Assembly: GCA_043758205.1 (NCBI GenBank)
Contig: JAYVNY010000057.1
Span: 1 to 64,000 of the forward strand
Length of the DNA: 64,000 bases
From: Akkermansia sp.
GTDB taxonomy: Bacteria > Verrucomicrobiota > Verrucomicrobiia > Limisphaerales > SIBH01
Direction of reading: 5' to 3'
Both the position numbers and the translations under genes were made by a program. Every line of letters starts with the position of its first letter. Within the stretch, counting starts at the first letter, position 1. Positions 6,027 through 64,000 of this stretch are shown here, in pieces. The notes beneath the pieces are model-generated. The model made no database searches and had not been told where the DNA came from. It saw only the letters and a list, made by a program, of their open reading frames with translations.

Positions 6027-6094
6027 GGCTGTTTGTTGCTGAAACCAGACGCGGCGGCGAGGGGATTTATTTAGAGCCGGTGCGAAATTCAGCC

Positions 6095-6262: not shown

Positions 6263-6268
6263 CGGCTC

Positions 6269-7348
6269 TTACCGCGGGGCCGTGTCGGGCGCGTTCGTGC
6301 TGGGGGGCGCGATGTCGAAGTTCAGTTGAAACTCGCCCGCGCTGACCGTGACGTGCGAGCGGTTCGTGTCTGTGTTCAACAGCGAGACGTTCGTGCCGAC
6401 GAAGGCAAAGCGGCCCAGGATGTAGCCGCTGACCGGGATGCTGCTCGTGTCGCTGAGGAAGAGCGAGTTGGTCCCGATGTATTCGATGGTGACCGAGGAA
6501 TTCGTGACGACTTCGTCCGTCAGGCCGGGATCAACCTGGAAGTGATACTCCTGTTTGCGGCGCAGGTCCGTCGCGTCATAAAAGCCGCGATTGTCGCCCA
6601 CGCCGAGGGCGTAGGTCGCCGGAAACGCACTGCTCACGCCGGTGAGATGCAAGTGCAGGCCGCGCGTCACCGAACCCGAGTCCACCGCGCTCACGCTCAA
6701 CACGCCGTCTTCGCTGAACTCGCCAATGGTGCCCCCGACGTTGTTGTAAAAATTCCCACCGCCCACGACCTCGCCTTTGGTGGCGTTGAAGGAAAGCTTG
6801 CCGATGCGCGCCGCCATCTGGCTCAGGCCCGGCTTCGTCCGCAAGGCGCGCTGCACATTGTTGCTGGCCGCGGCGAGGCGTTGCGCGGCGGACTGGAGAT
6901 GCTGGATGCGCTTTGCGGTGGTGGCGGCGAGGACGGCGTTCGAGAGCGAGTTGTTCACGCGCGTGAGCGCGGTGCGGGCGGCGGTTTTGTTCGCGCTGAT
7001 CGGGGCGGGGATCAATTGCGCGGTGATCTCGTCGCGGCGCACTTGGAAATCCGCCTGGTAGCCGGAAGTGGCGTCCGCGAGCAGGGGCGCGTAGCCGGAA
7101 ACCTCGCCCAGCAGATTGTTCAAGTTGCGGAGAATGGTCGTGTCGCCGCGCAGGTTTTTGGAAGTCTTGTGATACGCCTGGAGCGCCTTCTCCAGCGTCC
7201 TGGCCGCCGGGCTGCCGCCGTTCAGGTCGTTGGTGAGCTGCACGGAGACGGGTTGCGAATACGGCAGAATGGGATCGGCCGAGGCATCCCAAACCAGCGT
7301 GGAGCAGGCGGCGAACAGCGCGGAACCGAAGAGAAAACGCATCATCAT
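6269..7348 (-). CDS. Secreted hypothetical protein
   Basis: ORF 6269..7390; probable start at [24 protein letters not shown] (signal peptide); Asn/Thr/Ser-rich, no recognisable catalytic motifs. Confidence 0.5.
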
Positions 7349-13247: not shown

Positions 13248-13300
13248 AGCCACATCGAGCCGAGTGGTGCGGGCGAGTCTCGCGGGTGTCGCCATCCGAA

Positions 13301-13400
13301 AGCGGCGCTGAAGCGACCGCACTCCAAACGCTGTCGCGCAGCACGAGACGCCACCGACGACGCGAAGCGTTTGGAGTGCGGTCGCTTCAGCGCCGCTTTT
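13301..13400. terminator. Very long perfect hairpin (32-bp arms 13301-13332 / 13366-13397, 33-nt loop) followed by TTTT: probable intrinsic terminator / structured element after tri-domain GT gene
   Basis: agcggcgctgaagcgaccgcactccaaacgct ... agcgtttggagtgcggtcgcttcagcgccgct tttt read directly. Confidence 0.5.
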
Positions 13401-13432
13401 ACACGGCCTCACTGGCATACTGATCTAAACTC

Positions 13433-14320: not shown

Positions 14321-15048
14321 TCCCGCTCTACTCGCTCTACACGCCGTCGCATCGCCAGCTCATGGAACAGTATTTCACCCCCTCGCTTCCGCCCGATGTG
14401 GAACCGCACATTGTTTATTTCGAGAACGAGGGGGAAGGCTGGATTCAAGATCCGTCGTTCTGCCGGGCCATCGTCCGCAAGTGCGAGGTCATCATCGCTG
14501 CCATTCATGAGAACTGGGGGCGGACTTTCATCTGGAGCGATGTGGACGCGCAGTTCTTCGGGCCGATGACGGAATGGGTGGAGCGGACGACGCGCGACCT
14601 GGACCTGGTTTTTCAAGTGGATGCGCCGGGGCCGTGTTTGTGCGCGGGTTTTTTCTTTTGTCGTGGCCACGACGAGACGCTGAGCCTCTGGGAGGAGGCG
14701 CTCGACTTCGTGCGGCTGCCCGGTTCCGTGGGTGATGATCAACTCTATGTGCGCAACCAGCTCTGGTCTGGGCAGCGTCGCGTGCGCTGGGGGCACCTGC
14801 CGCCCGCGTTCATCGGCGGCGGCACCTTCACCGGGAAATGCTGGGACCCCGGGGACGACTTTCCCGTGCCGCAGGGAGTGGCGGTGCATCACGCCAACTG
14901 GACGGCCGGGCCCAAGTTCAAAATCATGCAGTGCGAATTCGTGCGCGCGAAACTGGCCCAAGGTGATCTCATCACGATGGAGGACGCCTGCGCGCGGCTG
15001 GACGGCGGGCGTGGGAAAATTCGGCCCCACGACTCCTCGCCGGGCTAG
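14317..15048 (+). CDS. Nucleotide-diphospho-sugar transferase-like protein (PF03407-like GT-A fold)
   Basis: 243 aa; start overlaps upstream stop (ATGA) indicating operon; ..FIWSDVDAQFF.. (DxD), ..GDDQLYVRNQLW.. resemble Nucleotid_trans domain. Confidence 0.55.
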   Translation: MIPLYSLYTPSHRQLMEQYFTPSLPPDVEPHIVYFENEGEGWIQDPSFCRAIVRKCEVIIAAIHENWGRTFIWSDVDAQFFGPMTEWVERTTRDLDLVFQVDAPGPCLCAGFFFCRGHDETLSLWEEALDFVRLPGSVGDDQLYVRNQLWSGQRRVRWGHLPPAFIGGGTFTGKCWDPGDDFPVPQGVAVHHANWTAGPKFKIMQCEFVRAKLAQGDLITMEDACARLDGGRGKIRPHDSSPG

Positions 15049-15049
15049 G

Positions 15050-15232
15050 ATTTGCATTTGGTGGAACGGGCTACCAGCCCGTGCCGCCCGGCTACCAGCC
15101 GGGCGGAAGGGAGGGAGCGTTGACTTGAAATAGGCCGCGCCAAAATCGACGGACGTCCTTCCTCATTCCGCGCGGCTGGTAGCCTGTGCACCCGGCGGCA
15201 TAGCCGCCGCTACTTCGGATTTCCGGTCAAGG
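15050..15232 (-). repeat. MITE-like element copy (reverse orientation) in convergent intergenic region
   Basis: Reverse complement ..ccgaagtagcggcggctatgccgccgggtgcacaggctaccagccgcgcggaa....ccgcccggctggtagccgggcggcacgggctggtagcccgttccacc.. aligns with the ffh-flanking copies. Confidence 0.55.
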
Positions 15233-30280: not shown

Positions 30281-30575
30281 GCGGATGAAAACGTGGTCGT
30301 TCAGCCCGGAGGGCTGACAGAAAGTAGCCGGGGGTTGAGCGACAGCGATACCCCCGGTCGCCCCCAACAAACGGACGCGACCCTGAAGGGGTCGCAGAAA
30401 TCATGAAATCATGGCGCGCTTCTTGCACCCCTCCGGGGTGCATTCGATTTCCGTGCGCGGATCCGGGGGTGTCGCTGGCGCTCAACCCCCGGCTACTGTC
30501 TTGCAGCCCTTCAGGCTGCCGCGCAGCACACGTTTGTGCGCTTCTCTGGATTCGCGGCTTCATCGCGTTTCGCAA
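30281..30575 (-). promoter_or_regulatory. Hairpin-dense spacer between flotillin and giant AAA+ genes
   Basis: gcgaccc-tgaa-ggggtcgc (30378-30396), cacccc-tcc-ggggtg (~30426-30440), gcagcc-cttcag-ggctgc (~30505-30521), and 24-bp imperfect IR cagaaagtagccgggggttgagcg / cgctcaacccccggctactgtctg (~30317-30340 / ~30478-30501). Confidence 0.4.
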
Positions 30576-38088: not shown

Positions 38089-38914
38089 GATTTGTCGGCG
38101 CAGTGAATCACCTCCTGTTTCAGCGGGCAAAGGCAAAGGCGGCGGGCGGGACGCCTTTCAAGTCCGTGCGGGAAATCACCGATAGTTTTTCAGCGCGTTC
38201 ACCGCCGTCCGCTGAGCGGTGCGAGGAACAAACATTTATCGAACCCAAATTTCTGCATGAGCACGAACGACAATAAAGCGACCGGAGGAATCGCCATGAG
38301 CTTCGCGACGAAGACGTTGCTGGTCGCGAGCAGCAGACCCAGCCACACCACGCCCACGGTGCAGAGCCAGCAGACGATGACCGTCAATACCTACCGCACC
38401 AGTTCCGCCGCGCGCACCTTCGCCTCCGCGCGGAAGCCCCAGCATTTGGTCAAGGCGTAGTGCGGGGCCGCGCCGAAAAATTTGGCGAGTGATACGGCGA
38501 TGAGCTGGAGAGCGCCTTCGTTTCATTCCTCACGCCCGGTCGGCGCGGGCTGGTTTGGTCTCCGCGCGACCAGGCTCACCCACATGCTTTTGATAGCTGT
38601 TTCGATTTTGACGCGTCTGCCTTGGGCACCGTCGAGGCCTGTCCGTTGCGCCCGATTCGATTAACATAAATCCGAGCCGTCGCCGTTACAGACAACACGC
38701 CGCTGGCGACCAAGAACTTGCCTTCGAGGTTTGCTTGTGATTAAAGATATCAACTCACGAGCTACCAGACGCGGCATTGGCGTGCCGTATTTGCGTCGCT
38801 CGACCAAAACAAACAGCGGTGTTAAGAAGTGCGTCTATGCTCGCCTGTCGTTGGCTTCGGACATTTTTGTCCGAGCCCCGCGAGCGTTCATTTCTGAACT
38901 CATCCCCCAACTCT

Positions 38915-41900
38915 ATGCAAACCATCCGTATCCTTGCCCTTGTGCTGGCCCTCGTCAGCGTATCCCGCGCCGCGTTGCCCACCATTGACACCCAGCCGGC
39001 CAGTTCCACGAACTGTCCCGGTACCACCGCAACTTTCACCGTCACCGCGTCGAGCGATTCCTCCACGAACTACCAATGGTATTTCAATGTGACGAACGCG
39101 GTCGCCGATGCGACGAACGCGAGCTACGCCGTTGTCGGCGTCGCGGCGAGCAATGCCGGCGGTTACTCCGTCGTTGTGGCCAACAACGATGGTTCCGTGA
39201 CCAGTGTGGTCGCGCAACTCGTGGTCAATGTCGCCACTACCGCGAGCGGCCCGGCCAACACCAGTGTGTGCGTGAACGGCACCACCGTGCTGACCACGAC
39301 GCCCGGCGGCACCGGGCCGTTCACCTATGTATGGCGCAAAGACGGGGGCGCGCCGCTGGGTTCTGTGGGTAACACCCACACGATTTCCGGCGCGACGTTG
39401 GGCGATGCGGGGGTGTATTCGGTGGAAGTTTCCGGTTCCTGCAACAGTGTAACCAACAGCGCGACTCTCACGGTGAATCCTCTGCCGTCGGTCGCAGTGA
39501 ACTCGGTCACGGTTTGCTCAAACAACCCCGGCGTGCTGACCGCGACCACGGGCGCGGCCAACCCCGCTTATCTTTGGACGCCCGGCGGCCAGACGACGGC
39601 CAGCGTCACCAACACCCCGATTTCGACGACTGTTTACACCGTCCTCGTGACGGATGGCGTGACGGGTTGCACGAACAGCGGCTCTGGCACGATCACGGTT
39701 CAGCCCCGCACCACGTCCACGGCCCTGGCTAACCAGACCAACTGCCCCGCCAGCAGCATTACCTTCTCCACCACGGCGGGCGGCACCGGGCCGTTCACCT
39801 ACACTTGGCGCAAGAACGGAACTGTGGTGCAGGGGCCGAACGGAACCAGTTCCTACAACATTCCTTCGGCGGTGGCGGCGGACAGCGGCACCTACAGCGT
39901 GGAAACGGCCGGCTCTTGCAACACCGTGACGAACAGTGCCTTCCTCCAAATCATTGCGGCCCCGGTCATCACCACGCAGCCCGCGAACTTCACGACCCCG
40001 ATGGGCAATGGTGCGACCTTCACGGTCGTGGCGACCACAGTGAATTCCACGGTCGGCCCGCTTTCGTACCAATGGCGCACGAACGGTGTGAACGTGACCG
40101 GTGCGACCTCCTCCAGTTTTTCAATCTCGAATGTTTCGCTGAGTCTGAACGGGCTGCAGGTGAGTTGCAGGGTTTCGAGCTGCGGCGGCGTGACCCTGAG
40201 CTCGGCGGCGACCTTGACGATCACGCCAATCACCGGCATTAGCTTCGACTTCAATACCCCCGGCCAATACACGAACGCGCCCTACAACCTCTTCGGCAAC
40301 GATTGGGTCAACACGGCCATCGTCAATGCCCAGCCCTTCGGCCCGATTCTTCCCTTCGAGCAACCCACCGGTGGCGTGGGTGTGGCCACGGGCGGCGGCG
40401 TGCTGGATTTGATCCATAACAACGGTAGCGACCAGACTTCGCTGCTCGTCCCGGTGACGTATGACTTCTCGCTGCCGGGCAAATCCCTCACGGCTTCGAT
40501 CATGATCAAAGTTAAGTTGGGCATCTCTTTGAACCGCGCCACGCAGTTGGGTTTCGTAGCCATCACCAACCTCCCTTCGCTGAACAACACCATGCAGGGC
40601 ATCGCGGCCAACAACGGGCAGGGTTTCATGTCGGTGATTTTGCAGTCCACCGTGACGAATCAATCACCGCCGCTGCTCGGCTATTCCTTGCGGGCTCAGG
40701 TCAAAGCCACCAACGGTACCGTCGCTACCGAGTACCTGCCGGTCAACACCCCGACCAACTCGCTGTCGAGCAACAACTGGTATCGGCTCGTGGCGAAATT
40801 CGTCAACACCCGCACGACCAACTCTTCCGCGGCCACGAACCTCAACACCTTCACCATCGAAGCCACTCTCCAGGATATGGGATCCAATGGTATGATTCCC
40901 GGCCCCATCGTTCTCGCCTACACTCCGATCACCTGCATCAGCAACCTGGATTTCGTGTATCACAACAGCCTGTTCTTCGCCGTGCGCGGCATTGAAACGG
41001 GCGGCGTTGATTATTGGGATAACTTGTTCGTGAGCACTACGCCGGGCAACGTCTTCTTTGTCCAGCAGCCGACTAACACCACCGTGCTCCAGGGCCGTTG
41101 GACGACGCTTTACGCGATGGTGGATGGCGACGGCCCCTACACCTACCAATGGTCGAAGAACGGCACGCCGATTCCCGGCGCGGGCAACTGGAAGTACCAG
41201 ACCCCGCAGGTGACGACCGCCGACAATGGCGCGGTCTATACCGTCACCGTCACCTCCACGAACAACTCCATCACCAGCGCCGGTGCCACCCTGACCGTGA
41301 CTCCTGATACGCTGGATGTGCTCTCCGTCGGTAGCGTGGACGGTGGGTTGATTGGTCTGCGCTTTGACCAGCCGGTCGCCCCGGGTTCGGCGGAAATTGC
41401 GGGCAACTACCTGATCAACGGTACTCCGGCCCTCTCCGCGAAGTTGCGCGTGTTCAATCCCCTGAATCCGATGCAGCAGTTGCGCACGAACCAGACGGAA
41501 GTGCTCCTCGTGCCGGCGTCGCCGGTCGCGGGCAGTTTCACGGTCACGGTTTCCGGTGTCACCTCCATCTCCGGCACGGCGCTCGGGGCGAACAATTCTG
41601 CGGTCGGTTCCGTGCTTGGGTTGACCAGCTTCGATGTGGATCCGCAGGCCATCCGTTTCAGCCGACCGGAAATCAGCGGCGCTCAGGTCAGCACGCTGCC
41701 CGGCTACACCTACAGCTTTGCGCCGAACCAGTTGGAATTGGTCTCCGGCGGCCATGATGTTTTCGGCAACTTTGACGGGTTTCACTTCGCCTACAAACAG
41801 ATCACGGGCGACTTCGACTTGAAGGTGCGCGTGCCCTACGTCGATCTGGTGCGCACGCCGACCAAGGCGGGCTTTGATGCCCGTATCTCGCTGGATGCGG

Positions 41901-44900
41901 ATGCGCCGAACGTGGGCGTGTTCGCCGACCCCGCGCTGCCGGGCCGTAACTTCGCGGAAGCCGGCGCGCGCACGAATTACAATCAGGCCACCGTTTCCTG
42001 GGGTAACAACGCCACGTTGACTTATCCGAACGCTTGGATCCGTTTCCGTCGCGCGGGCAACACCTTCCTGCGCTACTCGAGCACCAACGGCATCTTCTGG
42101 CAGTTCGACGGTCAGTTCAGCCCCAGCAGCCCCGGCAGCCAGGGCATGCAATTCCCCGACACTCTCTTCGTGGGTGTGGCAGGCAACTGTAACGTGGGTG
42201 GCGGCACCATCCAGCAATACGCCGTCTCGCAGTATGACCAGTATGGTGACTTCGCGGGCTATGCGAATGCACTCCTGACCATCGCCGCGCAACCGAATTT
42301 GGGCCAGACGAACGTGGCCGGGAACTCGACCAACCTCAACGGACTCATGGTCACCTTCACCACCAACGGCGTGACCGTGCCAGCGACGCTCGGTGAAATG
42401 GCCTTCATCTGGCAGCGCGCCAATGGACTGGGCGGCTGGACCAACCTGCCGACGGCCGGTCTCACGGCCAGCAACCTCGTCACGGGCGCACTCTTCGGCA
42501 ACGACAACGGCGCGCAATACCGCGCCATCGTCCGCGCCCCCGGTGCCCTGAGCGTGACCAGCGCCGTCGTCACGATGACGGTGATTGATCTGACTCCGCC
42601 CACCGTGGTGTCGGTGCTCATGCCCAGCAATTCGCCCAACCAGGTGATTGTCTATTTCTCGGAGAAGGTGTCGGACGCCACGGCCTTGAACACGGCGAAC
42701 TACCGCCTGACGAACCTGCTCACGGGCGTCACCTACACCATCGCCAGAGCACAATCTTACCTCGGCGACAACCGCACGGTTATCCTGACGATCAACGGCC
42801 CGCTGCCCCCGTCTCCCCGCTATTCGTTGGGTGTCAGCGGAGTGCAGGACCTGGGTGGCCAGACCGTGGCTACCACTGCTCCCAGCTTCGCGATGACCGG
42901 CATGGGTTTGGTGAACTCCGTGGAAGTGGACTACTACGGATCTTTGGCCAACTCGTCTAGCTTGGCGGACCTGACCGGCAACATCAAATTCATCAACAAC
43001 CAGCCGGACTGGATCATGTATAGCAACTCGATGAACATGGGCGGCGGTGCCTTCGCCTTCCCGGCCTCCACTCCGTTGCTGGGTGATAACTACGGCGTGA
43101 AGATGTTCACCTACTTCATTGCGCCCTCCAATTCGCAATACGTGTTCTGGTGGAAGGCGGACGACTACGCCCAATTCTCCATGACCACGAATCCGGCGGC
43201 GACGGGCGGCACGACGAATCCGTTGTTCAAAACCAGTGCGCCCATCTTGACCGCGAACGTCCCGATTTTCACCAACGCCAACACGTTCATCACTCCGCCG
43301 CTGACGGCCGGTCAGGCCTACTACACGGAGTTGTTGTACAAGGAAGGCGGCGGCGGCGACGGCGGCGTGATCTTCGTGACCATGGGCGGCACGACCAATG
43401 CAATTCCGTTGGGCAACTCCATCGCCCCGACTTATCTCTGGTCCTTCCCGGATGCGGTGGCTCGTCCGCCCAAGATGCTCATGGAGTTCTACACCGGCTT
43501 GAACAACGTGGGCCAGGTTGGCCAGTCGGGTAACGGCAACCTGCCGGATCTCCAGTGGGTGACCAACTTCCAGAACGTGGTCGCAGGCACGCCCAACGGC
43601 ATCGGCTACGTGAACATCTCGGGTTACTCGACCAACTTGGGCAACACCAGCTTGGATGCTTACCTGGGCCGTCTCCGCGGCTACTTCCTCCCGCCGACCA
43701 ACGGCAACTACCGCTTCTACACGCGCTCGGATGACTCCTGCGAGTTCTACATGAACACCAACGCGGTCAACAGCACCGACCCGGCGGGCCGGAGCTTCCT
43801 GCGCGCCCAGTTCGCCTTCACGAACATCACCCAACTCTGGCAGACACCTGTCGTCACCCTCACCGGAGGCCAGCTCTACTATATTGAAGGCATCTTCCGC
43901 GAAGGCGCGGGCGGCGACGGTATGACCATCGCGGTGAGCGGCGGCGATGAGCCGGCTCCGACGGGCGGCTTGGATTTGATTCCGCAGAGCATGTTGGTCT
44001 TCCCGACCAATCTGGATCGCGTGGGTCCCGTCAACTTCAACCAGGCTGGTAGCGCCGGTGGCTTGGCCCCGATGAACCCGACTGTGACCGACGGTCAGAA
44101 AATCACCTTCCAAGCTCGCGGCCTCGCTGGCTCCGCTCCGTATCTCGGCTTCATCTTCGCCAAGAACGGCGTGCAGATGCAGAGCTGCCCGACGGTCACC
44201 TACCCGGCGAATGCACCCTATTTCTGGGTCAGCCCACCCTTCACCGCTGCGGATAACGGCGCGGTCATCACCCTCACCGTGACGAACTATTTCAGCAGCG
44301 TCACCGTGACGAGCATCGTGACGGTCCTGGCCGACAACACGGCCCCGACCATTGTCAGTGCCGTGAGTTCGCAGTACGGCGGGCAGGTGTTGATCACCTT
44401 CAGCGAGAATGTTGATTCCACCACGGCCACTCGCGCGGGCAACTACAGCATCCCCGGCCTGACGGTGTATGCGGCGTGGCGTGATGACGTGAACCCGAAC
44501 CGCGTGAGCTTGCAGACCAGCCCGCAGACGCCGGGCACGACCTACACCGTAACGATCAACGGTGTGAAAGATCTGTCCACCGGTGGCAATGCCATGTCCG
44601 GGGCATCCAAGAGCTTCACCACCTGGGGCTTCGGCGGTTTGGGCACGGCGTACGTGGAAATCTTCACGAACATCGCCAGCACCAGTCCGGACTTCTTCTT
44701 CAACGACCCGAAGGGCGTGTACAACATGCCGGACATCTCTTACTACACGAACACGTTCTCGATCAGCCAGTTCGGGGCGCATGGCGGCTTGGAATTCTAC
44801 GCCGGCCGCGTGAGCGGCCTGTTCATGCCCCCGAGCAATGGACTCTATCAGTTCTATGTCCGCGGTGACGACGGCACGCGTCTCTACATGAACACCAACG

Positions 44901-47900
44901 GCCCCGCGCCCGCCGACAAGGTGCTGGTCGCCCGTAACGATGGTGCCAACTCCGGCCCGGTGGGTGCGAGCAGCGGCTACATCACGGGCACGGCCAACGG
45001 CCGCGTGGGCAATAGCGCCACCCCGGTGCTCTCGCTCACCAACGGCACCCCCTACTATCTGGAAGGCATCATGAAAGAAGGCGGCGGCGGCGACTATCTC
45101 ATGGTGGTGATGCGCGCCCTCGATCCGCTCACCTTGCTGCCCATCGGCGGTCTCCCGCTGACTCCGGCGGCGACCGACGTGGTTTCTGGCGGCTTCTTCC
45201 AGGCCACGGGCAACCCGGACATCAACCAGTTGGTCGTCATCTCGGCTCCGCCCACGGAGTTGACGGTGTTCGAGAATGATCTGGTGAATTTGGAGTTGGT
45301 CGCCAACGCGATTCCTCCTTCGCTCACGCCCTACATCACCTATCAGTGGCAGCGCACCAATGATGGCTCCGGCACCTTCACCAACATCCCGAACGCGACC
45401 ACGGCGAGCTACAGCTTCTACGCCAGCCTCAGCGATGACAGCACGCACTACCGCCTGCGCGCCACCATCCCTGGCCAGACCGTCTTCTTCTCGACGCTAC
45501 TGCATGTGCTGGTGGACACGGTGCCGCCTTACATTGTCTCCGTCAGCGCCCGCACCCCGATTAACGGCAAGCAACTGGTCGGACTGGCTTGGGACGGTCC
45601 GACGGATCCCGGCATCGCCACTGACCCGTCGGGCTATTACGCGGTTGACGAGTTCTCCACCACGGTCAACTTCGTCACGGTGCAGTATCGCCCCGGCTTT
45701 CCTAACCAATTACTCCTCCAGGTGGATGAGACGAGCGGCATCCTGATCGGCAACTTCACCATCTATCGCGACTTCATGCAGGATCGCGCGGCGGTGCCGA
45801 ACCCGGCGTTCAACCTCACGGCCACCGGCGCGGTGCAGCGCCTGAGCGAGCAAATCGTCGGCACCATCGGCAGCATTGCCGCCGGCGGCTACAACGCCAA
45901 CGCGCCCGGCCTCGGCTTCGTCGGCCTGGCCACCCCCACGGAAATGTTCACGGTCACGAACGCGGGCTGGGATGTCTCGGCCAACGGCTGGGACATTTGG
46001 AATAATGCGGACGGGTTCCTCTTCGGCCATCGCGAAGTGACCGGCAATTTCGACATCAAGACCCGCCTCCAGAAATTCACCGGCGCGGATCAATGGTCCA
46101 AGGCCGGACTCATGGTGCGGCCGAGCACGAACAGCAACAGCCGCATGTTCTTCATGGGCACCACGCCCCGCACCACGCCCATTGCCGGCCAGGTCCCGAA
46201 CAACTTCTTCGCCGCCCAGTACCGTGACCTTGACGGTGGCGCTCCGGGCAATGTGCAAAACGCCGTCCCGCCCGGTTACCCGAACGCCTGGGTCCGCCTC
46301 CAGCGCAGCAACTCGGTGTTCTACGGTTACTGGAGCACCAACGGCACGGACTGGAACGTCCTGTTCTCGCGCGACTTCTCCGGCACCATTGCCGGTGGCT
46401 TCCCGGACACGGTGCTGGTGGGCTTGGGCACGTGCTCACATGACCAGACCCGCAGTCTGGCCAACAATGCCTACGTCGAGTATCGCAATCTCTACTTCCC
46501 GAACGGCGCGGTCATTCTCACCCAGCCGGAACCGGCCTTCGTCGAGGTCGGCATCCACCAGAGCGTGACCTTCTCGAACCTCACCGCCTCCGGTGCCGGC
46601 GTCCGCTACCAATGGCGTCTCAACGGCGCGGCCATCACCGATGCCACCAACGCCTCGCTCACGTTGCCCAACACGGCCGTCGGCCAGTCCGGCATCTACA
46701 CGGTGGCCGCTTACACCGACGGCGGCGGCCAGATCAGCTCGAACGTGGTCCTTTCCGTGACCAACGTCCTGCCGACCGTTGTCAATGATTCGCTCACGGC
46801 GACCCAGGGCATGGTGCGCACGTTCCCGGCTTCGTTCCTCCTTGCGAACGACAGCGACTTCGAACTCGATCCGCTCTCGGTGCTCTCCGTGTTCTATCCG
46901 CATACCCTCGCCACGAACTTCGATGGCGGCGCGTTCAGCGGCTCGGTCATGTATGGCAACGCCACGAACGTGTCCACGGGCGGCACAGGTGATTCCGGTC
47001 GCATCCGCCTGAACGACGCGCTGGCCTCCCAAGCTGGCTCGGTCGTCTTCAACGAGGTGACGCCCGGTGCGCGTGTGTTGGCGTTCCGCGCCGCGTTCAA
47101 CCTGCGTATCGCCGAAGGCAGCGCGGAACCGGCTGACGGTTTCAGCTTCAACTTCGCGGGTGACCTGCCGAATGCGGCGACGGGCGCGCGGGCGTCGGAA
47201 GATGGCCTTGGCAGCGGCTTCAGCTTCTGCGTGGACAATTACCGCTTCCTGCCCTTCGTGGGCGTCGGTGCCGCCGCCGGCAGCGGAGCCAGCACCACGG
47301 CCAACACTTCCGGTATGAAGGTGAATTACGGCAACATCGTTCGCGCTGGTGTCCAGGCTCCGACCTGGAACAACACGGCCTACATCCCGGTGGACATCAC
47401 GCTGGAATCGAACGGTCGCCTCACCGTGCTGGTCAATGGCACCAACGTCTTCGGCACTTTCACCATCCCGTGGGTGCCGCAGGCGGGCCGCTTCGGCTTC
47501 TTCGCCCGCACCGGCGGCCAGTTGGAGTCACACTCAATTGATGATCTGAACATCAGCTACATCGCTGAGGACACGCAGCGAGGTGGCCTGCTCACCTACA
47601 CCAACGGCGTCGTGGCCTACAGCCCCCCGTCCATCGGTTGCGGACTTGACAGGTTCTTCTACATCGCCAGCGACGGTCAGGTCGGCGGCACCAACGTCGG
47701 CACCGTCACCGTCAACATCGTTAGTTCCAATGCGCCGGTGATTGTGAGTTGCGCGGCCAACCAGACCTACTACGTGAGCGGAGGTTGCACGGTCAACCTG
47801 CCCAACCTCACCGGTGGCTTGGTGGTCACTGACTGTGGCACCTACACCATCACGCAAAGCCCGGCGGCCGGAACCGCGCTCGGCTTGGGCAATACCATCG

Positions 47901-48658
47901 TGACCTTCGACGTCACGAACAGTGGCGGGCTGAGCACGAACTGCCAGATCACCGTGTCGGTCCTCGACACGAACGCGCCGAGCGTGACCTGTCCGGCGAA
48001 TATTGTCACCGAGGCCACCGGCCCGTCGGGACGCGTCGTGACTTACGCGCCGTCCGGATCGGATAACTGCACGCTCGCTTCGCTCGTCGCCAACCCGGCC
48101 TCCGGCTCGACCTTCCCGCTCGGCGTTACCGTCGTGACCGTCACGGCCACCGATAACAGCGGCAACACCAACGCCTGCACCTTCACCGTCACCGTGCAGG
48201 ACACCACGGCCCCGGTCATCACCTGCCCGACGAACATCACCACCGCCTGCACCAGCACGAACGGCGCGGTTGTGAATTACACCGTCACCTCGGTTGACCA
48301 GGTGGACCCGAACCCGACGCTCATCGTCACGCCGCCCTCTGGCTCGACCTTCGCGCCTGGCACGAACCTCGTGACCGCGCTCACGTATGACGCGGCGGGC
48401 AACACCAACACCTGCTCGTTCCTCGTCATCGTGCAGGATCAAACCCCGGCCATCTTGAGCATCAACAAGGTCGGAACGAACGTCGTGGTCTGTTATCCGC
48501 AGACCTGCACGCCGTATGTGCTCGAAGGCGCGACTGACCTCACGCCGCCGATTTCGTGGACCCCGGTGGGTCTGCCCGCGAGCGCGGTGGGCGCGGACTT
48601 CTGCGTCACCATTCCGGCGGATCTGCCCTATAACTTCTTCCGCCTGCGCAAGCCGTAA
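38915..48658 (+). CDS. Giant (3247 aa) secreted adhesin-like protein: ~6 N-terminal Ig-like domains, LamG/concanavalin-like domains, three PA14 domains, further Ig-like domains, three HYR domains, conserved C-terminal ~70-aa beta-sandwich ending FFRLRKP
   Basis: Signal MQTIRILALVLALVSVSRA; Ig-like Y-x-W-R-K/T-N/D-G repeats (YVWRKDG, YTWRKNG, YQWRTNG, YQWSKNG, YQWRLNG); PA14 (GYFLPPTNGNYRFYTRSDDSCEFYMN; GLFMPPSNGLYQFYVRGDDGTRLYMN); HYR (VTCPANIVTEATGPSGRVVTYAPSGSDNC; ITCPTNITTACTSTNGAVVNYTV). Confidence 0.85.
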   Translation: MQTIRILALVLALVSVSRAALPTIDTQPASSTNCPGTTATFTVTASSDSSTNYQWYFNVTNAVADATNASYAVVGVAASNAGGYSVVVANNDGSVTSVVAQLVVNVATTASGPANTSVCVNGTTVLTTTPGGTGPFTYVWRKDGGAPLGSVGNTHTISGATLGDAGVYSVEVSGSCNSVTNSATLTVNPLPSVAVNSVTVCSNNPGVLTATTGAANPAYLWTPGGQTTASVTNTPISTTVYTVLVTDGVTGCTNSGSGTITVQPRTTSTALANQTNCPASSITFSTTAGGTGPFTYTWRKNGTVVQGPNGTSSYNIPSAVAADSGTYSVETAGSCNTVTNSAFLQIIAAPVITTQPANFTTPMGNGATFTVVATTVNSTVGPLSYQWRTNGVNVTGATSSSFSISNVSLSLNGLQVSCRVSSCGGVTLSSAATLTITPITGISFDFNTPGQYTNAPYNLFGNDWVNTAIVNAQPFGPILPFEQPTGGVGVATGGGVLDLIHNNGSDQTSLLVPVTYDFSLPGKSLTASIMIKVKLGISLNRATQLGFVAITNLPSLNNTMQGIAANNGQGFMSVILQSTVTNQSPPLLGYSLRAQVKATNGTVATEYLPVNTPTNSLSSNNWYRLVAKFVNTRTTNSSAATNLNTFTIEATLQDMGSNGMIPGPIVLAYTPITCISNLDFVYHNSLFFAVRGIETGGVDYWDNLFVSTTPGNVFFVQQPTNTTVLQGRWTTLYAMVDGDGPYTYQWSKNGTPIPGAGNWKYQTPQVTTADNGAVYTVTVTSTNNSITSAGATLTVTPDTLDVLSVGSVDGGLIGLRFDQPVAPGSAEIAGNYLINGTPALSAKLRVFNPLNPMQQLRTNQTEVLLVPASPVAGSFTVTVSGVTSISGTALGANNSAVGSVLGLTSFDVDPQAIRFSRPEISGAQVSTLPGYTYSFAPNQLELVSGGHDVFGNFDGFHFAYKQITGDFDLKVRVPYVDLVRTPTKAGFDARISLDADAPNVGVFADPALPGRNFAEAGARTNYNQATVSWGNNATLTYPNAWIRFRRAGNTFLRYSSTNGIFWQFDGQFSPSSPGSQGMQFPDTLFVGVAGNCNVGGGTIQQYAVSQYDQYGDFAGYANALLTIAAQPNLGQTNVAGNSTNLNGLMVTFTTNGVTVPATLGEMAFIWQRANGLGGWTNLPTAGLTASNLVTGALFGNDNGAQYRAIVRAPGALSVTSAVVTMTVIDLTPPTVVSVLMPSNSPNQVIVYFSEKVSDATALNTANYRLTNLLTGVTYTIARAQSYLGDNRTVILTINGPLPPSPRYSLGVSGVQDLGGQTVATTAPSFAMTGMGLVNSVEVDYYGSLANSSSLADLTGNIKFINNQPDWIMYSNSMNMGGGAFAFPASTPLLGDNYGVKMFTYFIAPSNSQYVFWWKADDYAQFSMTTNPAATGGTTNPLFKTSAPILTANVPIFTNANTFITPPLTAGQAYYTELLYKEGGGGDGGVIFVTMGGTTNAIPLGNSIAPTYLWSFPDAVARPPKMLMEFYTGLNNVGQVGQSGNGNLPDLQWVTNFQNVVAGTPNGIGYVNISGYSTNLGNTSLDAYLGRLRGYFLPPTNGNYRFYTRSDDSCEFYMNTNAVNSTDPAGRSFLRAQFAFTNITQLWQTPVVTLTGGQLYYIEGIFREGAGGDGMTIAVSGGDEPAPTGGLDLIPQSMLVFPTNLDRVGPVNFNQAGSAGGLAPMNPTVTDGQKITFQARGLAGSAPYLGFIFAKNGVQMQSCPTVTYPANAPYFWVSPPFTAADNGAVITLTVTNYFSSVTVTSIVTVLADNTAPTIVSAVSSQYGGQVLITFSENVDSTTATRAGNYSIPGLTVYAAWRDDVNPNRVSLQTSPQTPGTTYTVTINGVKDLSTGGNAMSGASKSFTTWGFGGLGTAYVEIFTNIASTSPDFFFNDPKGVYNMPDISYYTNTFSISQFGAHGGLEFYAGRVSGLFMPPSNGLYQFYVRGDDGTRLYMNTNGPAPADKVLVARNDGANSGPVGASSGYITGTANGRVGNSATPVLSLTNGTPYYLEGIMKEGGGGDYLMVVMRALDPLTLLPIGGLPLTPAATDVVSGGFFQATGNPDINQLVVISAPPTELTVFENDLVNLELVANAIPPSLTPYITYQWQRTNDGSGTFTNIPNATTASYSFYASLSDDSTHYRLRATIPGQTVFFSTLLHVLVDTVPPYIVSVSARTPINGKQLVGLAWDGPTDPGIATDPSGYYAVDEFSTTVNFVTVQYRPGFPNQLLLQVDETSGILIGNFTIYRDFMQDRAAVPNPAFNLTATGAVQRLSEQIVGTIGSIAAGGYNANAPGLGFVGLATPTEMFTVTNAGWDVSANGWDIWNNADGFLFGHREVTGNFDIKTRLQKFTGADQWSKAGLMVRPSTNSNSRMFFMGTTPRTTPIAGQVPNNFFAAQYRDLDGGAPGNVQNAVPPGYPNAWVRLQRSNSVFYGYWSTNGTDWNVLFSRDFSGTIAGGFPDTVLVGLGTCSHDQTRSLANNAYVEYRNLYFPNGAVILTQPEPAFVEVGIHQSVTFSNLTASGAGVRYQWRLNGAAITDATNASLTLPNTAVGQSGIYTVAAYTDGGGQISSNVVLSVTNVLPTVVNDSLTATQGMVRTFPASFLLANDSDFELDPLSVLSVFYPHTLATNFDGGAFSGSVMYGNATNVSTGGTGDSGRIRLNDALASQAGSVVFNEVTPGARVLAFRAAFNLRIAEGSAEPADGFSFNFAGDLPNAATGARASEDGLGSGFSFCVDNYRFLPFVGVGAAAGSGASTTANTSGMKVNYGNIVRAGVQAPTWNNTAYIPVDITLESNGRLTVLVNGTNVFGTFTIPWVPQAGRFGFFARTGGQLESHSIDDLNISYIAEDTQRGGLLTYTNGVVAYSPPSIGCGLDRFFYIASDGQVGGTNVGTVTVNIVSSNAPVIVSCAANQTYYVSGGCTVNLPNLTGGLVVTDCGTYTITQSPAAGTALGLGNTIVTFDVTNSGGLSTNCQITVSVLDTNAPSVTCPANIVTEATGPSGRVVTYAPSGSDNCTLASLVANPASGSTFPLGVTVVTVTATDNSGNTNACTFTVTVQDTTAPVITCPTNITTACTSTNGAVVNYTVTSVDQVDPNPTLIVTPPSGSTFAPGTNLVTALTYDAAGNTNTCSFLVIVQDQTPAILSINKVGTNVVVCYPQTCTPYVLEGATDLTPPISWTPVGLPASAVGADFCVTIPADLPYNFFRLRKP

Positions 48659-48683: not shown

Positions 48684-48717
48684 AGAGGCCGGGCGCAAGC
48701 CCGGCCTCTTTTTTTGT
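48684..48717 (+). terminator. Rho-independent terminator of adhesin gene
   Basis: agaggccgggc-gcaa-gcccggcctct followed by ttttttt. Confidence 0.8.
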
Positions 48718-48751
48718 GGGGGCATGGAAAAGGCGGTCGCTTTAGCCAGAA

Positions 48752-48960
48752 CACCGAAGTGGCGGCGGCGCAGCCGCCGGGGTGGCACAGGCAACCTGCC
48801 TGTGCCGCGCGGCTACCAGCCGCGCGGAACGGGGGAGGACGCAGGAAAGTTTTGCTGCGCCCATTTCCTATTCACGCTCCATCCCATTCCGCCCGGCTGG
48901 TAGCCGGGCGGGACGGGCTGGTAGCCCGTTCCACCCGTTCCGATTTCGGAGTTCGGGTTT
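48752..48960 (+). repeat. MITE-like element copy A (upstream of ffh), ~210 bp, imperfect terminal inverted repeats
   Basis: ccgaagtggcggcggcgcagccgccggggtggcacaggcaacctgcctgtgccgcgcggctaccagcc....ccgcccggctggtagccgggcgggacgggctggtagcccgttccacccgttccgatttcggagttcgggtt; ~90% identical to copy B. Confidence 0.75.
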
Positions 48961-49060
48961 AGCTCCGCTTTCCGATGGGGTAAATGCCACAGGGCCTCCG
49001 GGGTGCCCCGCCGTCTTTCGCCATTGGCTTTTGGAAATTTCTCCGTACGCTCCCGCGCCT

Positions 49061-50392
49061 ATGTTCGACAGCCTGACCAACAAGTTGCAGAAGGTTTTCA
49101 AAGACCTGCGCGGCATGGGCAAAATCACCGACGACAACGTGGCTGGCTCGCTGCGCGAAGTGCGCATGGCGTTGCTCGAAGCCGACGTGAACTTCAAAGT
49201 CGCGCGCGACTTCATCGAGCGCGTGAAGGAAAAGGCGCTCGGCGCAGAAGTCATCCAGAGCGTTCATCCCGGTCAGCAGATCGTCAAAGTCATCTACGAC
49301 GAACTGGTCGCGCTGCTCGGCTCGGAGAATGCCGCGCTGAACCTCACCGGCAACCCCGCCATCATTCTCATGTGCGGCCTGCACGGCTCGGGCAAAACCA
49401 CTTCCAGCGGCAAGCTCGCGCGCCTGCTCGCCAAGCAGGGGCGCACGCCGCTCCTCGTGGCGGCGGACGTGTACCGACCGGCGGCGATGGAACAGCTCGC
49501 CACGCTCGGACAACAGGTGGACGTGCCGGTCTTCGTGATGCAGGGCGAGACGGACGTGTTGAAAATCGCGCGCGAGGCGCTGGCTTTTGCGAAGGAGAAC
49601 CACCGCGCCACGATCATTTTCGACACGGCGGGCCGGTTGCAGATTGATGAAGTGCTGGTGCAGGAGCTGGTGAAGCTGCGCGACTTCATCCAGCCGCAGG
49701 AAATTCTGCTCGTGCTCGACGCCGCCACCGGCCAGGAGGCGGTGAATGTTGCGACGCATTTCGATCAGGCGCTGAAGATTACCGGCAGCATTCTCACCAA
49801 GCTCGACGGCGACGCACGCGGCGGCGCGGCCTTGAGCATGAAGACGGTCACGGGCCAGCCCATCAAATTCATGGGCGTGGGCGAGAAGCCCGAGGACTTC
49901 GAGCCGTTCCACCCCGAGCGCATGGCGTCGCGCATCCTCGGCATGGGTGACGTGGTCAGTCTCGTCGAACGCGCGGCGGAGGCGGTGGACGTAGATGAGG
50001 CCGCACGCATGGAGGAGAAAATGCGCAAGGGGCAGTTCTCGCTCGAAGATTTTCTCGACCAGATGCGCGCGATGAAAAAGCTCGGCTCGCTCCAGAGCAT
50101 CGTGGGCATGTTGCCCGGCGGCGACAAGATCACCTCTGAGCAACTGGATCAGCAGGGAAAAGAATTCAAGCGGATGGAAGGCATCATCTGCGCCATGACG
50201 ATCAAGGAGCGGCAGAATCCCAACCTGCTCAACGCCAAGCGCCGGCTGCGCATCGCCGCCGGCAGCGGCGTGAAAGTCGCCGAGGTCAACACGCTGATGA
50301 ACAAGTTCGCGCAGATGCAGCAGATGATGAAGAAGTTCAGCAAGATGCAGAAGATGATGGGCCGCATGGGCGGGATGCCGGGGATGCGGTAA
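49061..50392 (+). CDS. ffh: Signal recognition particle protein Ffh
   Basis: MFDSLTNKLQKVFKDLRGMGKITDDNV.., GTPase ..MCGLHGSGKTTSSGKLA.., ..TKLDGDARGGAALS.., Met-rich M domain ..MNKFAQMQQMMKKFSKMQKMMGRMGGMPGM. Confidence 0.95.
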   Translation: MFDSLTNKLQKVFKDLRGMGKITDDNVAGSLREVRMALLEADVNFKVARDFIERVKEKALGAEVIQSVHPGQQIVKVIYDELVALLGSENAALNLTGNPAIILMCGLHGSGKTTSSGKLARLLAKQGRTPLLVAADVYRPAAMEQLATLGQQVDVPVFVMQGETDVLKIAREALAFAKENHRATIIFDTAGRLQIDEVLVQELVKLRDFIQPQEILLVLDAATGQEAVNVATHFDQALKITGSILTKLDGDARGGAALSMKTVTGQPIKFMGVGEKPEDFEPFHPERMASRILGMGDVVSLVERAAEAVDVDEAARMEEKMRKGQFSLEDFLDQMRAMKKLGSLQSIVGMLPGGDKITSEQLDQQGKEFKRMEGIICAMTIKERQNPNLLNAKRRLRIAAGSGVKVAEVNTLMNKFAQMQQMMKKFSKMQKMMGRMGGMPGMR

Positions 50393-50450
50393 CGGGCATG
50401 AACGGTCGCGCGATGGGCGCGCGGCGTTCCCGCCGCTTCACGGTGCGGAG

Positions 50451-50680
50451 GGTTCAACCCGAACTCCGAAGTCGGGGGGCGTAGCCGCCGGGGTAGCACA
50501 GGCAACCTGCCAGTGCCGCGCGGCGACCAGCCGCGCGGAACGGAGGAGGACGCAGGAAAGTTTTGTTGCGCCCATTTCCCATCCACGCCCCTCCCATTCC
50601 GCCCGGCTGGTAGCCGGGCGGGACGGGCTGGTAGCCCGTTCCACCCGTTCCGTTTTCGGAGTTCGGGTTCAAGCGTTCTC
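50451..50680 (+). repeat. MITE-like element copy B (downstream of ffh), ~15-bp terminal inverted repeats aacccgaactccgaa / ttcggagttcgggtt
   Basis: Near-identical to copy A, same orientation. Confidence 0.8.
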
Positions 50681-50787: not shown

Positions 50788-51738
50788 ATGCAACGCGACA
50801 TCGTCACCGTCCAAAGTTTCTACACCGCCCATGCGGACGAACTGGAACTCAAGCTCATCGCCGGTGCGGCGGGATTGAAGCGCATCATCCGCGAGCCGAC
50901 CGTGAACCGGCCCGGTCTCGCGCTTGCGGCCTTCACCAAGTATTTCGCGAACAAACGCGTGCAGGTCATGGGCAATGCCGAGCTGCACTTCCTCAAATCA
51001 TTGCCGCAACCGGGACGCGAGGCGCGCTACGATCAGTTGTTCAAATACAAAATCCCCTGCGTCGTCTTCTCGCGCGGTTATCTCCCGGACAAAGCCTTTC
51101 TCCGCATCGCCGAGCGACATGACGTGCCGGTGTTCAAGACGCCGCTCATCACCATGAAGTTCATCAACCGCGCCACGCTCGCGCTGGAGGGCATGTTCGC
51201 CCCGCGCGGCAGCGAGATGGGCAGCATGATCGACATCCTCGGCGTGGGCGTGATCATCAAGGGCGAGAGCGGCATCGGAAAAAGCGAGTGCGTGCTCGCG
51301 CTGCTCGAACGCGGCTACAGCCTCGTGGCCGACGACATCACCCGCGTGCAGCTCATTGACGGGCGCGACGTGATGGGCACCTGCTCGGAACTGACGCGGC
51401 ATCACATGGAAGTGCGCGGCATCGGCATCATCAACGTGCAGGCCATGTTCGGCGTGCGCGCGGTGCGGGATGAGAAGCGCGTGGACCTCGTCATCACTTT
51501 GAAGGAATGGAGCCAGGTGCCGGACGTGGACCGCGTGGGCATGGAGGAAAAGTACACGCAAATTCTCGGGGCGAACATTCCGCACATGATCATTCCCGTG
51601 CGGCCGGGACGAGACCTCGCGCGGCTCGTCGAGGTGGCGGCGTTTCAAACCAAGCTGAAGCAATCCGGCTACAATCCGGCGAAGGAATTGAACGACATGC
51701 TCATCGCGCGCATGAAGCAGCAGCAAAAGGGGATTTGA
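50788..51738 (+). CDS. hprK: HPr kinase/phosphorylase
   Basis: ..GVGVIIKGESGIGKSECVLALLERGYSLVADD.. Walker A and HprK core, ..MEVRGIGIINV.. Confidence 0.9.
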   Translation: MQRDIVTVQSFYTAHADELELKLIAGAAGLKRIIREPTVNRPGLALAAFTKYFANKRVQVMGNAELHFLKSLPQPGREARYDQLFKYKIPCVVFSRGYLPDKAFLRIAERHDVPVFKTPLITMKFINRATLALEGMFAPRGSEMGSMIDILGVGVIIKGESGIGKSECVLALLERGYSLVADDITRVQLIDGRDVMGTCSELTRHHMEVRGIGIINVQAMFGVRAVRDEKRVDLVITLKEWSQVPDVDRVGMEEKYTQILGANIPHMIIPVRPGRDLARLVEVAAFQTKLKQSGYNPAKELNDMLIARMKQQQKGI

Positions 51739-62488: not shown

Positions 62489-64000
62489 ATGAAACTCAAT
62501 TCACTTCGGCACTTCTGGCTTATGGTCGCGGGCTTGTGTTTTCTGCCTTCCGCCTTCGGCCTTCGCCTTTCCGCCCAGGGCACGGCCTTCACCTATCAGG
62601 GGCGGCTGAACGACGGAGCGGCACCCGCCAGCGGCAGTTACGATTTGCAATTTGCCGTTTACGACGCGGCCAGCGGCGGCAGCAAGCAGGCACCGTTCAT
62701 GACCAACTCCGCCACGGCGGTGAGCAACGGGCTGTTCACGGTGACGCTCGACTTCGGGAATATTTTCTCCGGCGCGGCGCGCTGGCTGGACATCGGGGTG
62801 CGGACGAATGGCGGCGGCACGTTCACGCTGCTGGCCCCGCGGCAGGCGTTGACGCCCACGCCGTATGCGATCTTCGCGGGCGGCGCGAGCAATCTGGTGG
62901 GCGCGGTCTCCTCGGCGAATCTGGCGGGGACGTATGCGCAGGCGGTGACGCTGAACAATCCCGGCAACGTCTTCGCGGGCGACGGCACGGGCGTGACGAA
63001 TGTGAACGCGGCGCAACTCAACGGACTGGCGGCGGGAAATTTCTGGCAGCTCGGGGGCAACACTGTTTCCGCCGGACAATTTCTCGGCAGCACGAACGAA
63101 CAGGCCGTGGAAATCAAAGTGAACGCTGTGCGCGCGTTGCGGTTGGAGCCTCATGCGACCAGTCCCAATGTGATCGGCGGCTTCAGCGGCAACTTCGTGG
63201 GGGAGGGATTCTTTGGCTCGACCATTGGCGGCGGCGGAAGCCTCGGCGCAAACAACACTCTTTTGGCCAGCTACGCCACCATCGCGGGCGGCTACTTCAA
63301 CGACATCGGCAAGAACTCCGATGCCAGCGTCATTGGCGGGGGACGGGACAACAACATCGCGTCCGACTTGCCGTATGCCACCATCGCGGGCGGCATCTCC
63401 AACACCATCGGCACGGCCTCCGAAAACAGCGCGATGGGCGGGGGCTATAACAACACCATCGCCGCCAAATCGTCTTCTGCCACCATCGCAGGAGGCTCTG
63501 CGAACGCCATCGGCACGAACTCCCCTTTCAGCGCGATGGGCGGGGGCTTCGACAACCGCATCGCGGCCAATTCGTGGGCGGCCACCATCGCGGGGGGCAA
63601 CTTCAACGGCATCGGAGTTGACGGACATTACAGCGCGATTGGCGGCGGGCAGCACAACAACATCGCGTCCAATTCGGCCTTGGCCACCATCGCAGGGGGC
63701 TGGGAAAACGACATCGGAGTCGAGGCCGATTACAGCGCGATTGGCGGCGGTCGGCACAACACCATCGCGTCCAATGCGGCCTACGCCACCATCGCGGGCG
63801 GCACCTTCAACGACATCGGCACGAACTCCTATTTCAGCGCGATGGGCGGGGGCGAAAAAAATACCATCGGAGCCGGCTCGCCGCATGCCACTATCGCGGG
63901 GGGTAATTTCAACGACATCGGAGTTGACTCCCATCACAGCGCGATTGGCGGCGGGCAGCAAAACACCATCGCGGTCAAATCGGTTTACGCCACGATTCCC
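62489..64000 (+). CDS. Partial (3' end off-window) secreted beta-roll/Hep_Hag-like repeat protein (tail-fibre/YadA-head-like repeats)
   Basis: Read in the frame from ATG 62489: MKLNSLRHFWLMVAGLCFLPSAFGLRLSAQG (signal) then >12 degenerate ~28-aa repeats ..ATIAGGxxNxIGxxSxxSAIGGGxxNTIAS..; the track's 62467..63450(+) and 62501..63961(-) ORFs are other frames of this repeat DNA. Confidence 0.65.
   Translation, partial: MKLNSLRHFWLMVAGLCFLPSAFGLRLSAQGTAFTYQGRLNDGAAPASGSYDLQFAVYDAASGGSKQAPFMTNSATAVSNGLFTVTLDFGNIFSGAARWLDIGVRTNGGGTFTLLAPRQALTPTPYAIFAGGASNLVGAVSSANLAGTYAQAVTLNNPGNVFAGDGTGVTNVNAAQLNGLAAGNFWQLGGNTVSAGQFLGSTNEQAVEIKVNAVRALRLEPHATSPNVIGGFSGNFVGEGFFGSTIGGGGSLGANNTLLASYATIAGGYFNDIGKNSDASVIGGGRDNNIASDLPYATIAGGISNTIGTASENSAMGGGYNNTIAAKSSSATIAGGSANAIGTNSPFSAMGGGFDNRIAANSWAATIAGGNFNGIGVDGHYSAIGGGQHNNIASNSALATIAGGWENDIGVEADYSAIGGGRHNTIASNAAYATIAGGTFNDIGTNSYFSAMGGGEKNTIGAGSPHATIAGGNFNDIGVDSHHSAIGGGQQNTIAVKSVYATIP

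Follow-up and report, generated by a model that had tools for sequence, protein, structure and literature searches.

The window analysed here is a 64,000-nucleotide stretch (positions 1 to 64,000 of contig JAYVNY010000057.1, from an assembly labelled Akkermansia sp.) in which ffh, the gene for the signal recognition particle protein, lies between two same-orientation copies, A and B, of a small palindromic repeat, with two further copies, C and D, elsewhere in the window. A preliminary description made from the letters of this DNA had called the repeat MITE-like (miniature inverted-repeat transposable element) and had proposed that the pair around ffh could excise or duplicate the gene, or could supply its promoter and terminator. 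An intact copy is built from a 3-bp flank, a 14-nt terminal inverted repeat and two inverted half-units of ~58 nt with a spacer of ~40 nt between them, and the features that concern us are laid out as follows.

48745-48958, plus strand: copy A, 214 bp, subfamily c3, defined by the sequence, a repeat finder, a four-way alignment and a covariance model
48745-48758: left terminal repeat of copy A (GCCAGAACACCGAA, decayed), followed by a small hairpin at ~48761-48778
48779-48836: left half-unit of copy A
48837-48879: spacer of copy A
48880-48937: right half-unit of copy A
48945-48958: right terminal repeat of copy A
48742-48744 and 48959-48961: target-site duplication TTA of copy A, read from the sequence, the pattern being tested family-wide
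49061-50392, plus strand: ffh, 443 residues, outside the element
50457-50668, plus strand: copy B, 212 bp, subfamily c3
50457-50470 and 50655-50668: left (ACCCGAACTCCGAA) and right terminal repeats of copy B
50490-50547 and 50590-50647: half-units of copy B
50454-50456 and 50669-50671: target-site duplication TCA of copy B, read and tested as for copy A
6074-6268, plus strand: copy C, 195 bp (6071-6271 with the duplication), subfamily c2, with terminal repeats GAGCCGGTGCGAAA and TTTCCGACCGGCTC
6095-6152 and 6197-6254: half-units of copy C
6071-6073 and 6269-6271: target-site duplication TTA of copy C
~15038-15227, minus strand: copy D, a decayed and inverted c3 copy, one boundary of which is approximate because that end is degenerate
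15058-15115: intact half-unit of copy D
~15166-15190: remnant hairpin of copy D, the outer hairpin of this other half having been deleted
15212-15227: terminal repeat of copy D

Copies A and B are direct repeats that are identical at 197 of 214 positions (92.1%), their longest exact common run being 61 nt, which bears out the ~90% identity first noticed around ffh. The repeat finder likewise returned direct repeats at a spacing of 1711 nt with 91-98% identity, together with weaker copies at ~6.1 kb and, inverted, at ~15.1 kb, and the four-way alignment confirmed that A, B, C and D, including the two divergent copies that had been reported, are homologous. A covariance model of the half-unit run over the 64 kb of the window recovered copies A-D and no further significant match. 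Each half-unit consists of two hairpins with tips of the form GGCW-RGT-WGCC, the left half bearing the reverse complement (ACC/ACT loops). The internal palindromes GGCTACCAGCC / GGCTGGTAGCC have eight exact matches in the window against 0.01 expected, all of them within copies A-D, so that the palindromic cores first described are real, and 11 of the 12 window matches to the wider motif GGCWRGTWGCC also fall within the four copies. The terminal inverted repeats, estimated at first as ~15 bp, are 14 nt long and form a perfect pair in copy B (ACCCGAACTCCGAA / TTCGGAGTTCGGGT); in copy A the left repeat has decayed to GCCAGAACACCGAA with three mismatches, a point that had been overlooked. All four copies are intergenic, copy C lying upstream of a minus-strand DUF1552 gene, and they are non-coding, as the open reading frames (ORFs) that cross them are either short or the spurious starts of long ORFs. 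At 195-214 bp the intact window copies are within the size usual for MITEs (< ~300 bp, non-coding), and the term MITE-like is further justified by the terminal inverted repeats and by 3-bp duplications of the form TNA that had gone unseen.

The family is dispersed, as had been claimed from its four copies in the window, and its copies extend well beyond it. When the exact 22-mer of the outer hairpin was searched against one genome per species, at least 101 matching stretches were found, and the matches listed come from 33 assemblies, all but one labelled Verrucomicrobiota or apparently mislabelled; most are labelled Verrucomicrobiota, Pedosphaera or Limisphaerales. Since nhmmer with a sequence-only profile missed many left halves, we used the covariance model instead, and in 0.76 Mb of loci from these 33 assemblies it identified 202 half-units and 75 paired cores, the latter in two length classes of ~100 nt and ~158 nt. 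Two other assemblies carry more than 40 half-units each. The family appears to be undescribed and is abundant in Verrucomicrobiota of soil, groundwater and freshwater; a search of a plasmid collection gave no match. Many copies lie within ~100 nt of a contig end (L013, L020, L021, L026, L035, L048, L051, L071, L075 and others), and the family therefore probably breaks short-read metagenome assemblies. Several repeat-bearing assemblies have labels that seem wrong, namely L101 (CAYZJP, "uncultured Klebsiella sp."), L006, L011 and L025 (DATHKK, "Candidatus Limnocylindria"), and JAYVQC and JAYVWQ ("Akkermansia sp."); these odd labels are probably a matter of mislabelling or mis-binning.

We consider it likely, with a probability of about 0.7, that the copies represent a REPIN-like core (REPINs being inverted pairs of repetitive extragenic palindromic, or REP, sequences) carried in a MITE shell, and that they were moved by a TNA-duplicating transposase of the IS5/Harbinger type. 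Copies A-D would accordingly be non-autonomous mobile elements with two layers. The outer one would be the shell, with terminal inverted repeats of 14-18 nt, inserting with a 3-bp TNA duplication, often in the context CTNAG; such a duplication is the signature of DDE transposases of the IS5 family (IS1031-like) and of the PIF/Harbinger type acting in trans. The inner layer would be a four-hairpin core of two inverted half-units with GGCWRGTWGCC tips, and cores that occur naked, lacking a shell, would be mobilised by a REP-associated tyrosine transposase (RAYT). The observations behind this proposal are the anatomy described above, the duplications, the dispersal of the family, the covariation in its hairpins, and the association of half-units with RAYT in other genomes. 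The family brings together two mobility systems that are usually treated apart, one being the hairpin core of REPIN type and the other the target-duplicating MITE shell.

The duplications were assessed in 29 elements in which both terminal repeats could be located by a fixed rule, the triplets flanking them being compared. An exact 3-nt direct repeat was present at the ends of 16 of the 29, and 44 of the 58 flanks had the form TNA. Among the 17 cases in which both flanks were TNA, 16 were direct repeats and none was inverted, so that the triplets do not simply continue the inverted repeat. With the boundary shifted 1-3 nt outward as a control, 0, 0 and 1 matches were obtained. The flanks also show a frequent C before the triplet and G after it, which yields the CTNAG context. 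In the literature, a 3-bp duplication characterises canonical Harbinger elements, themselves relatives of IS5 (PMC12730594), as well as the IS1031 group within IS5 (PMC2516522).

The terminal repeats differ among four subfamilies, being 14 nt long in A and B and 14-18 nt in the other subfamilies:

subfamily c1, terminal repeat GAGCGTGTTTTGAAAATG: other assemblies
subfamily c2, terminal repeat GAGCCTGTCTGAAAA: copy C
subfamily c3, terminal repeat ACCCGAACTCCGAA: copies A, B and D
subfamily c4, terminal repeat GCCGTATCTATGCAG: other assemblies

The ends of c1 and c2, copy C included, start with GAGC and those of c3 with ACCC. A 273-bp MITE in another locus (L017, 3678-3950) has the same GAGCCTGTTT.AAAA terminal repeats of c2 type and a TAA duplication, and its interior is unrelated, which shows that the shell moves with different cargoes. 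Many cores have neither shell nor visible duplication, and shell and core are separable. Under the MITE shell model a parent insertion sequence (IS) with a TNA duplication would be expected to be bounded by GAGCSTGTYTGAAAA or by ACCCGAAYTCCGAA. We searched for one as paired shell repeats 0.6-3 kb apart and as orphan repeats beside ORFs, and the candidate regions proved to be noise or ordinary genes (E1 dehydrogenase, asparaginase).

The core shows a different pattern of conservation. In an alignment of 40 long copies from many assemblies the hairpin columns are 90-99% conserved and those of the spacer, shell and flank 30-60%, from which we conclude that conservation in the family resides in the internal core of four hairpins and not in the termini. 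The inner hairpin, which played no part in the ascertainment of the loci, has six stem pairs that are altered on both sides in 31-48 of 96 sequences, and 92% of its cells are paired, compared with 78% after shuffling and 27-48% when the partners are slid; half-units outside the ascertainment show the same compensatory pattern. The foot of the hairpin is variable: many left halves have GGGTAGCAC, and GGGTGG is found in others, that of copy A among them, as well as in every right half. Many left halves start with G-GTAG directly followed by the hairpin, and the GTAG position reads GTGG in many copies, copy A among them.

The association with RAYT was found in seven related assemblies, one represented by a partial contig (L099), in which a RAYT is flanked by half-units or full cores. 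In six (L008, L039, L069, L068, L061 and L099) two half-units in their usual left/right arrangement have starts separated by 564 nt, and the ORF segment between them matches the NCBIfam model REP_Tyr_transpos over its full length (E 2.7e-20, 72.8 bits vs. a cut-off of 80). Homologues of the segment are named RayT and carry PF01797, and two motifs are intact, the HUH motif as VMPDHVH and the tyrosine motif as F[RH]Y[VL]C[GR]NPW; a sequence search of PDB with the RAYT insert gave no match. In the seventh, L054, the RAYT lies between two complete cores of 160 nt, which is the layout of REPtrons and TIRtrons, a RAYT between repeats (PMC3733652). The dispersed cores look like transposase-less derivatives of such a RAYT unit. 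A sister RAYT lineage (L068 3303-3779, P0124 and P0161) has another palindromic repeat at its flanks (GGGGAGCGCACGCGCCCTCGCG..., which in translation gives ..GSARASRAG.. and ..AREGACAP..) and is also nested in host genes; the alaS of L068 that carries the first RAYT contains this one as well, with HVN in place of the HUH motif.

All seven of these RAYTs are situated in frame within alaS, at the following positions:

L008, 2979-3600: RAYT with half-units
L039, 4660-5281: RAYT with half-units
L069, 2523-3144: RAYT with half-units
L068, 2218-2839: RAYT with half-units
L061, 2156-2777: RAYT with half-units
L099, 852-1473: RAYT with half-units
L054, 1989-2826: RAYT with full cores

In six assemblies, L054 included, the alanyl-tRNA synthetase (AlaRS) ORF runs unbroken for 1122-1388 residues through half-unit, RAYT and half-unit, contig L099 being too short to tell, and the insert divides the Pfam tRNA-synt_2c domain in two. 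Translation of the half-units gives GGTGYQPVAAGNLPAA and a second peptide of 17 letters. The insertions occupy two different sites in alaS, each of which is vacant in certain genomes. When the full library was searched with a RayT homologue, 6364 matches were obtained at E <= 0.001; among the best 150 cluster representatives about 50 have 400 residues or more, with the RAYT domain internal in most, and the ten long proteins that we checked with Pfam were AlaRS (four), RecG (three), PriA, ValRS and PurH. Hosts of an embedded RAYT beyond alaS are RecG, PriA, ValRS and PurH, to which MetH and a protein with an alanine-racemase-like domain can be added; the embedding proteins are P0216, P0223, P0229, P0230, P0232, P0241, P0250, P0283, P0284, P0299, P0161 and P0196, together with one at L107 2501-3319. 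MetH holds a RAYT in P0161 and, at the same inter-domain linker, a naked core in L005 (2607-2706) and L055 (3057-3153). Further naked cores lie in frame in long ORFs of L038, L063, L080, L097, L046 and L101, the cores within ORFs always being read in the frame that gives GGTGYQPV..GNLP.. peptides, and 12 of the 75 paired cores have an open frame of at least 100 residues on both sides.

These findings lead us to a broader proposal for the origin of the core, the odds on which we would put at about even. The four-hairpin core would then form the terminal repeat of a RAYT lineage resident in housekeeping genes, where its hairpin units are read as Gly/Pro-rich linkers. The transposase would be produced as a domain internal to an essential protein, an arrangement comparable to an intein-like refuge that does without protein splicing. 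From there the lineage would seed REPIN-like cores genome-wide, some of which would be picked up by IS5-type MITE shells such as those of copies A-C. A literature search found no description of RAYT nested in frame in housekeeping genes; Quentin et al. (2018) noted no more than in-frame REP insertions, in tnpAREP among other genes. The in-frame embedding of RAYT in essential genes would, if confirmed, represent a novel means of persistence for a transposase, and the AlaRS-RAYT fusion offers a directly testable system, both for the existence of the protein and for hairpin cutting.

Comparison with known repeats places the family between several of them. With REPINs, or REP sequences mobilised by RAYT (Bertels and Rainey, 2011, PMC3116915), and with the GTAG REPs, REPtrons and TIRtrons (Di Nocera, 2013, PMC3733652), it shares inverted pairs of short hairpin-forming repeats that are dispersed mostly between genes, the presence in related genomes of an HUH tyrosine transposase of the RAYT family between the same repeats, and many half-units that open with GTAG followed directly by the stem. 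It departs from them in having two hairpins per arm and thus four per core (cores of 100-160 nt), in a GTAG that is not invariant, in a RAYT that lies in frame inside alaS instead of forming a stand-alone gene, and in the outer terminal repeats and 3-bp duplication of the window copies, both of which REPINs lack. The likeness to IS5-derived bacterial MITEs and to Tourist-type PIF/Harbinger MITEs lies in the size (~140-215 bp) and non-coding nature, the terminal repeats of 14-18 nt (GAGC... in c1 and c2), the 3-bp TNA duplication and the many copies per genome; unlike in those MITEs the termini vary by subfamily and conservation is highest in the interior, which inverts the pattern usual for MITEs, and no parent IS was found. 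Correia (NEMIS), ERIC and BOX elements are likewise small intergenic palindromic repeats beside genes, co-transcribable and with strong hairpins, but they have no sequence relation to this family, the duplication here is a different one (Correia elements use TA), and a putative promoter, IHF site or RNase site is not among the features we established. Rickettsia palindromic elements recall the in-frame cores inside protein genes (alaS, metH and others) of related genomes; they belong to a different phylum and show no sequence relation, and the four window copies are all intergenic.

Several points weigh against the interpretation of the copies as a REPIN-like core in a TNA-duplicating shell. 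Imperfect duplications make up 13 of the 29. The window and the 0.76 Mb of loci yielded no autonomous IS that has the terminal repeats of the shell, and the case for a DDE enzyme is therefore drawn from the duplication signature; the type of transposase that moved the window copies is presumably that which leaves such duplications. The c3 terminal repeat (ACCC...) does not begin with GAG, which is the typical end of the IS1031 group in the ISfinder family table. There is no RAYT in the window, the link to RAYT having been seen in other species only. All loci were retrieved through an exact 22-mer in one hairpin, so that the conservation of this hairpin is there by construction and the sample is biased toward well-kept copies. 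Finally, the scheme gives no account of how one core came to lie within four different shell types.

A simpler scheme, in which the copies are pure REPINs moved by RAYT only and the outer inverted repeats do no more than lengthen the stem, so that no DDE transposase was involved, seems to us unlikely. It would fit the RAYT that related assemblies carry between these half-units or cores, the naked cores with no visible duplication, and the many left halves in which G-GTAG precedes the hairpin, as in GTAG-tagged REPs (PMC3733652). Against this, the same shell occurs with unrelated cargo in L017 and many copies, copy A among them, have GTGG in place of GTAG. Moreover, copies A, B and C and 16 of the 29 shelled copies have exact 3-bp direct TNA repeats, and to our knowledge the chemistry of IS200/IS605 and RAYT leaves no target duplication. 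The hairpin tips, four per element, might instead be sites for a host DNA-binding protein, for instance in nucleoid organisation or transcription insulation, as the tip motif of 11 nt is nearly palindromic, has half-sites of 4 nt and stays constant among subfamilies and species that differ in stems, spacer and shell; we regard this as highly improbable, because recognition of the tips by RAYT predicts equal conservation, no candidate protein was identified, and the motif is subject to the same 22-mer ascertainment bias. Improbable too, if less so than host-protein sites, is that the copies are structured non-coding RNA genes or cis-acting RNA motifs (mRNA stabilisers or attenuators) that act on ffh expression at the RNA level. 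The predicted RNA folds of copy A are very stable (-139 and -140 kcal/mol, z -8 and -9, on the two strands), the hairpin stems show strong compensatory changes, and the intergenic position of all four window copies would permit co-transcription with neighbouring genes; MITEs and REPs are known to affect mRNA stability (PMC3733652), and the elements may have such an incidental effect on neighbouring genes. The equivalent folds from the two strands are, on the other hand, what a true palindrome produces, since it folds equally well on either. In the element's orientation G:T and A:C stem mismatches are about equally rare in our own tally (40 vs. 29), which argues against a constraint on RNA only, as this would tolerate G:U, although the lack of asymmetry is a weak test of the RNA strand in an element that is a true palindrome. 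Terminal inverted repeats and target duplications, cores that also occur in frame inside ORFs and beside a transposase, and ffh loci of relatives that are devoid of the element likewise speak for a mobile repeat, the view taken in the preliminary description. Rfam agrees with it, giving no match in the window at gathering score, the only hits of a permissive search being generic long-hairpin microRNA models far below threshold.

That A and B might be the ends of one ffh-carrying unit, a composite transposon or segmental duplication that renders ffh mobile or amplifiable, is scarcely credible to us. MITE-flanked composite units have been described in other bacteria, and the two copies have the same orientation, are 1.7 kb apart, 92% identical, and share the 61-nt run. 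The flanks of A are TTA/TTA and those of B TCA/TCA, so that the outer flanks (TTA left of A, TCA right of B) differ and each copy has its own matched pair. The two are also not each other's closest relatives: in the same subfamily alignment copy B is nearest to L048, a copy in another assembly, at 93.6% identity vs. 89.5% to A (by blastn L048 is 94.8% identical to A and 94.6% to B). Because the duplications differ and B is nearer to L048 than to A, we take A and B to be independent insertions, neither one a duplicate of the other nor the two a composite unit, and under the two-layer proposal they would have landed separately in the intergenic regions on either side of ffh. In three relatives (Ffh 89-91% identical) the ffh loci have different neighbours and no half-unit was found at them, one of these loci having flanking gaps of just 52 and 38 nt; as synteny around ffh is lost even at ~90% Ffh identity, this comparison shows the absence of the element only and does not prove an empty site. 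The predicted empty sites are GGTCGCTTTAGCTCCGCTTTCC for copy A and GCGGAGGGTTCAAGCGTTCTCCCG for copy B.

The special relation to ffh suggested at the outset thus does not hold. The gene itself was correctly named, its product having the Pfam domains SRP54_N, SRP54 and SRP_SPB, but a scan for sigma-70-like promoters and for hairpins with a T-run detected neither inside copy A or B, contrary to the idea that the elements serve as promoter and terminator of ffh. The bracketing of ffh is probably incidental, and the shared orientation is probably due to chance, with no dedicated role at this gene. Recombination between A and B, with excision or duplication of ffh, is possible in principle given the 61-nt identical run; there is probably little consequence for ffh, the sole real one being that this direct repeat is able to support rare recombination. 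No exact copy of the window's Ffh is on record; its homologues are at most 93% identical, a conspecific genome seems to be absent from the protein collection, and the ffh gene is only 82-84% identical to its best available relatives; P0025, an Ffh homologue 88% identical to the window's, is labelled Limnocylindria. The neighbourhood of ffh contains the following:

38777-48658: giant ORF of 3293 residues upstream of copy A, with immunoglobulin-like and HYR domains and internal repeats of 237 nt and 474 nt
48684-48709, plus strand: terminator-like hairpin and T-run of this upstream gene, from the terminator scan, copy A lying between the hairpin and ffh
50788-51738: hprK, downstream of copy B and followed by the gene for HPr

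The window contains other repeats that are unrelated to the element at ffh. At least four large intergenic inverted repeats (30302-30518, 13286-13412, 3000-3116 and 615-767) have arms of 40-56 nt that are 83-93% complementary, and a short motif, GCGCTGAAGCG, is present at 13305 and 13383 and recurs just downstream of copy B at 50690; the genome seems to be rich in several families of palindromic repeat. A tandem array with a 102-nt period occupies 63223-63996, where at least seven copies that are 66-78% identical reach the end of the window inside long ORFs, and it probably encodes a protein repeat of 34 residues.

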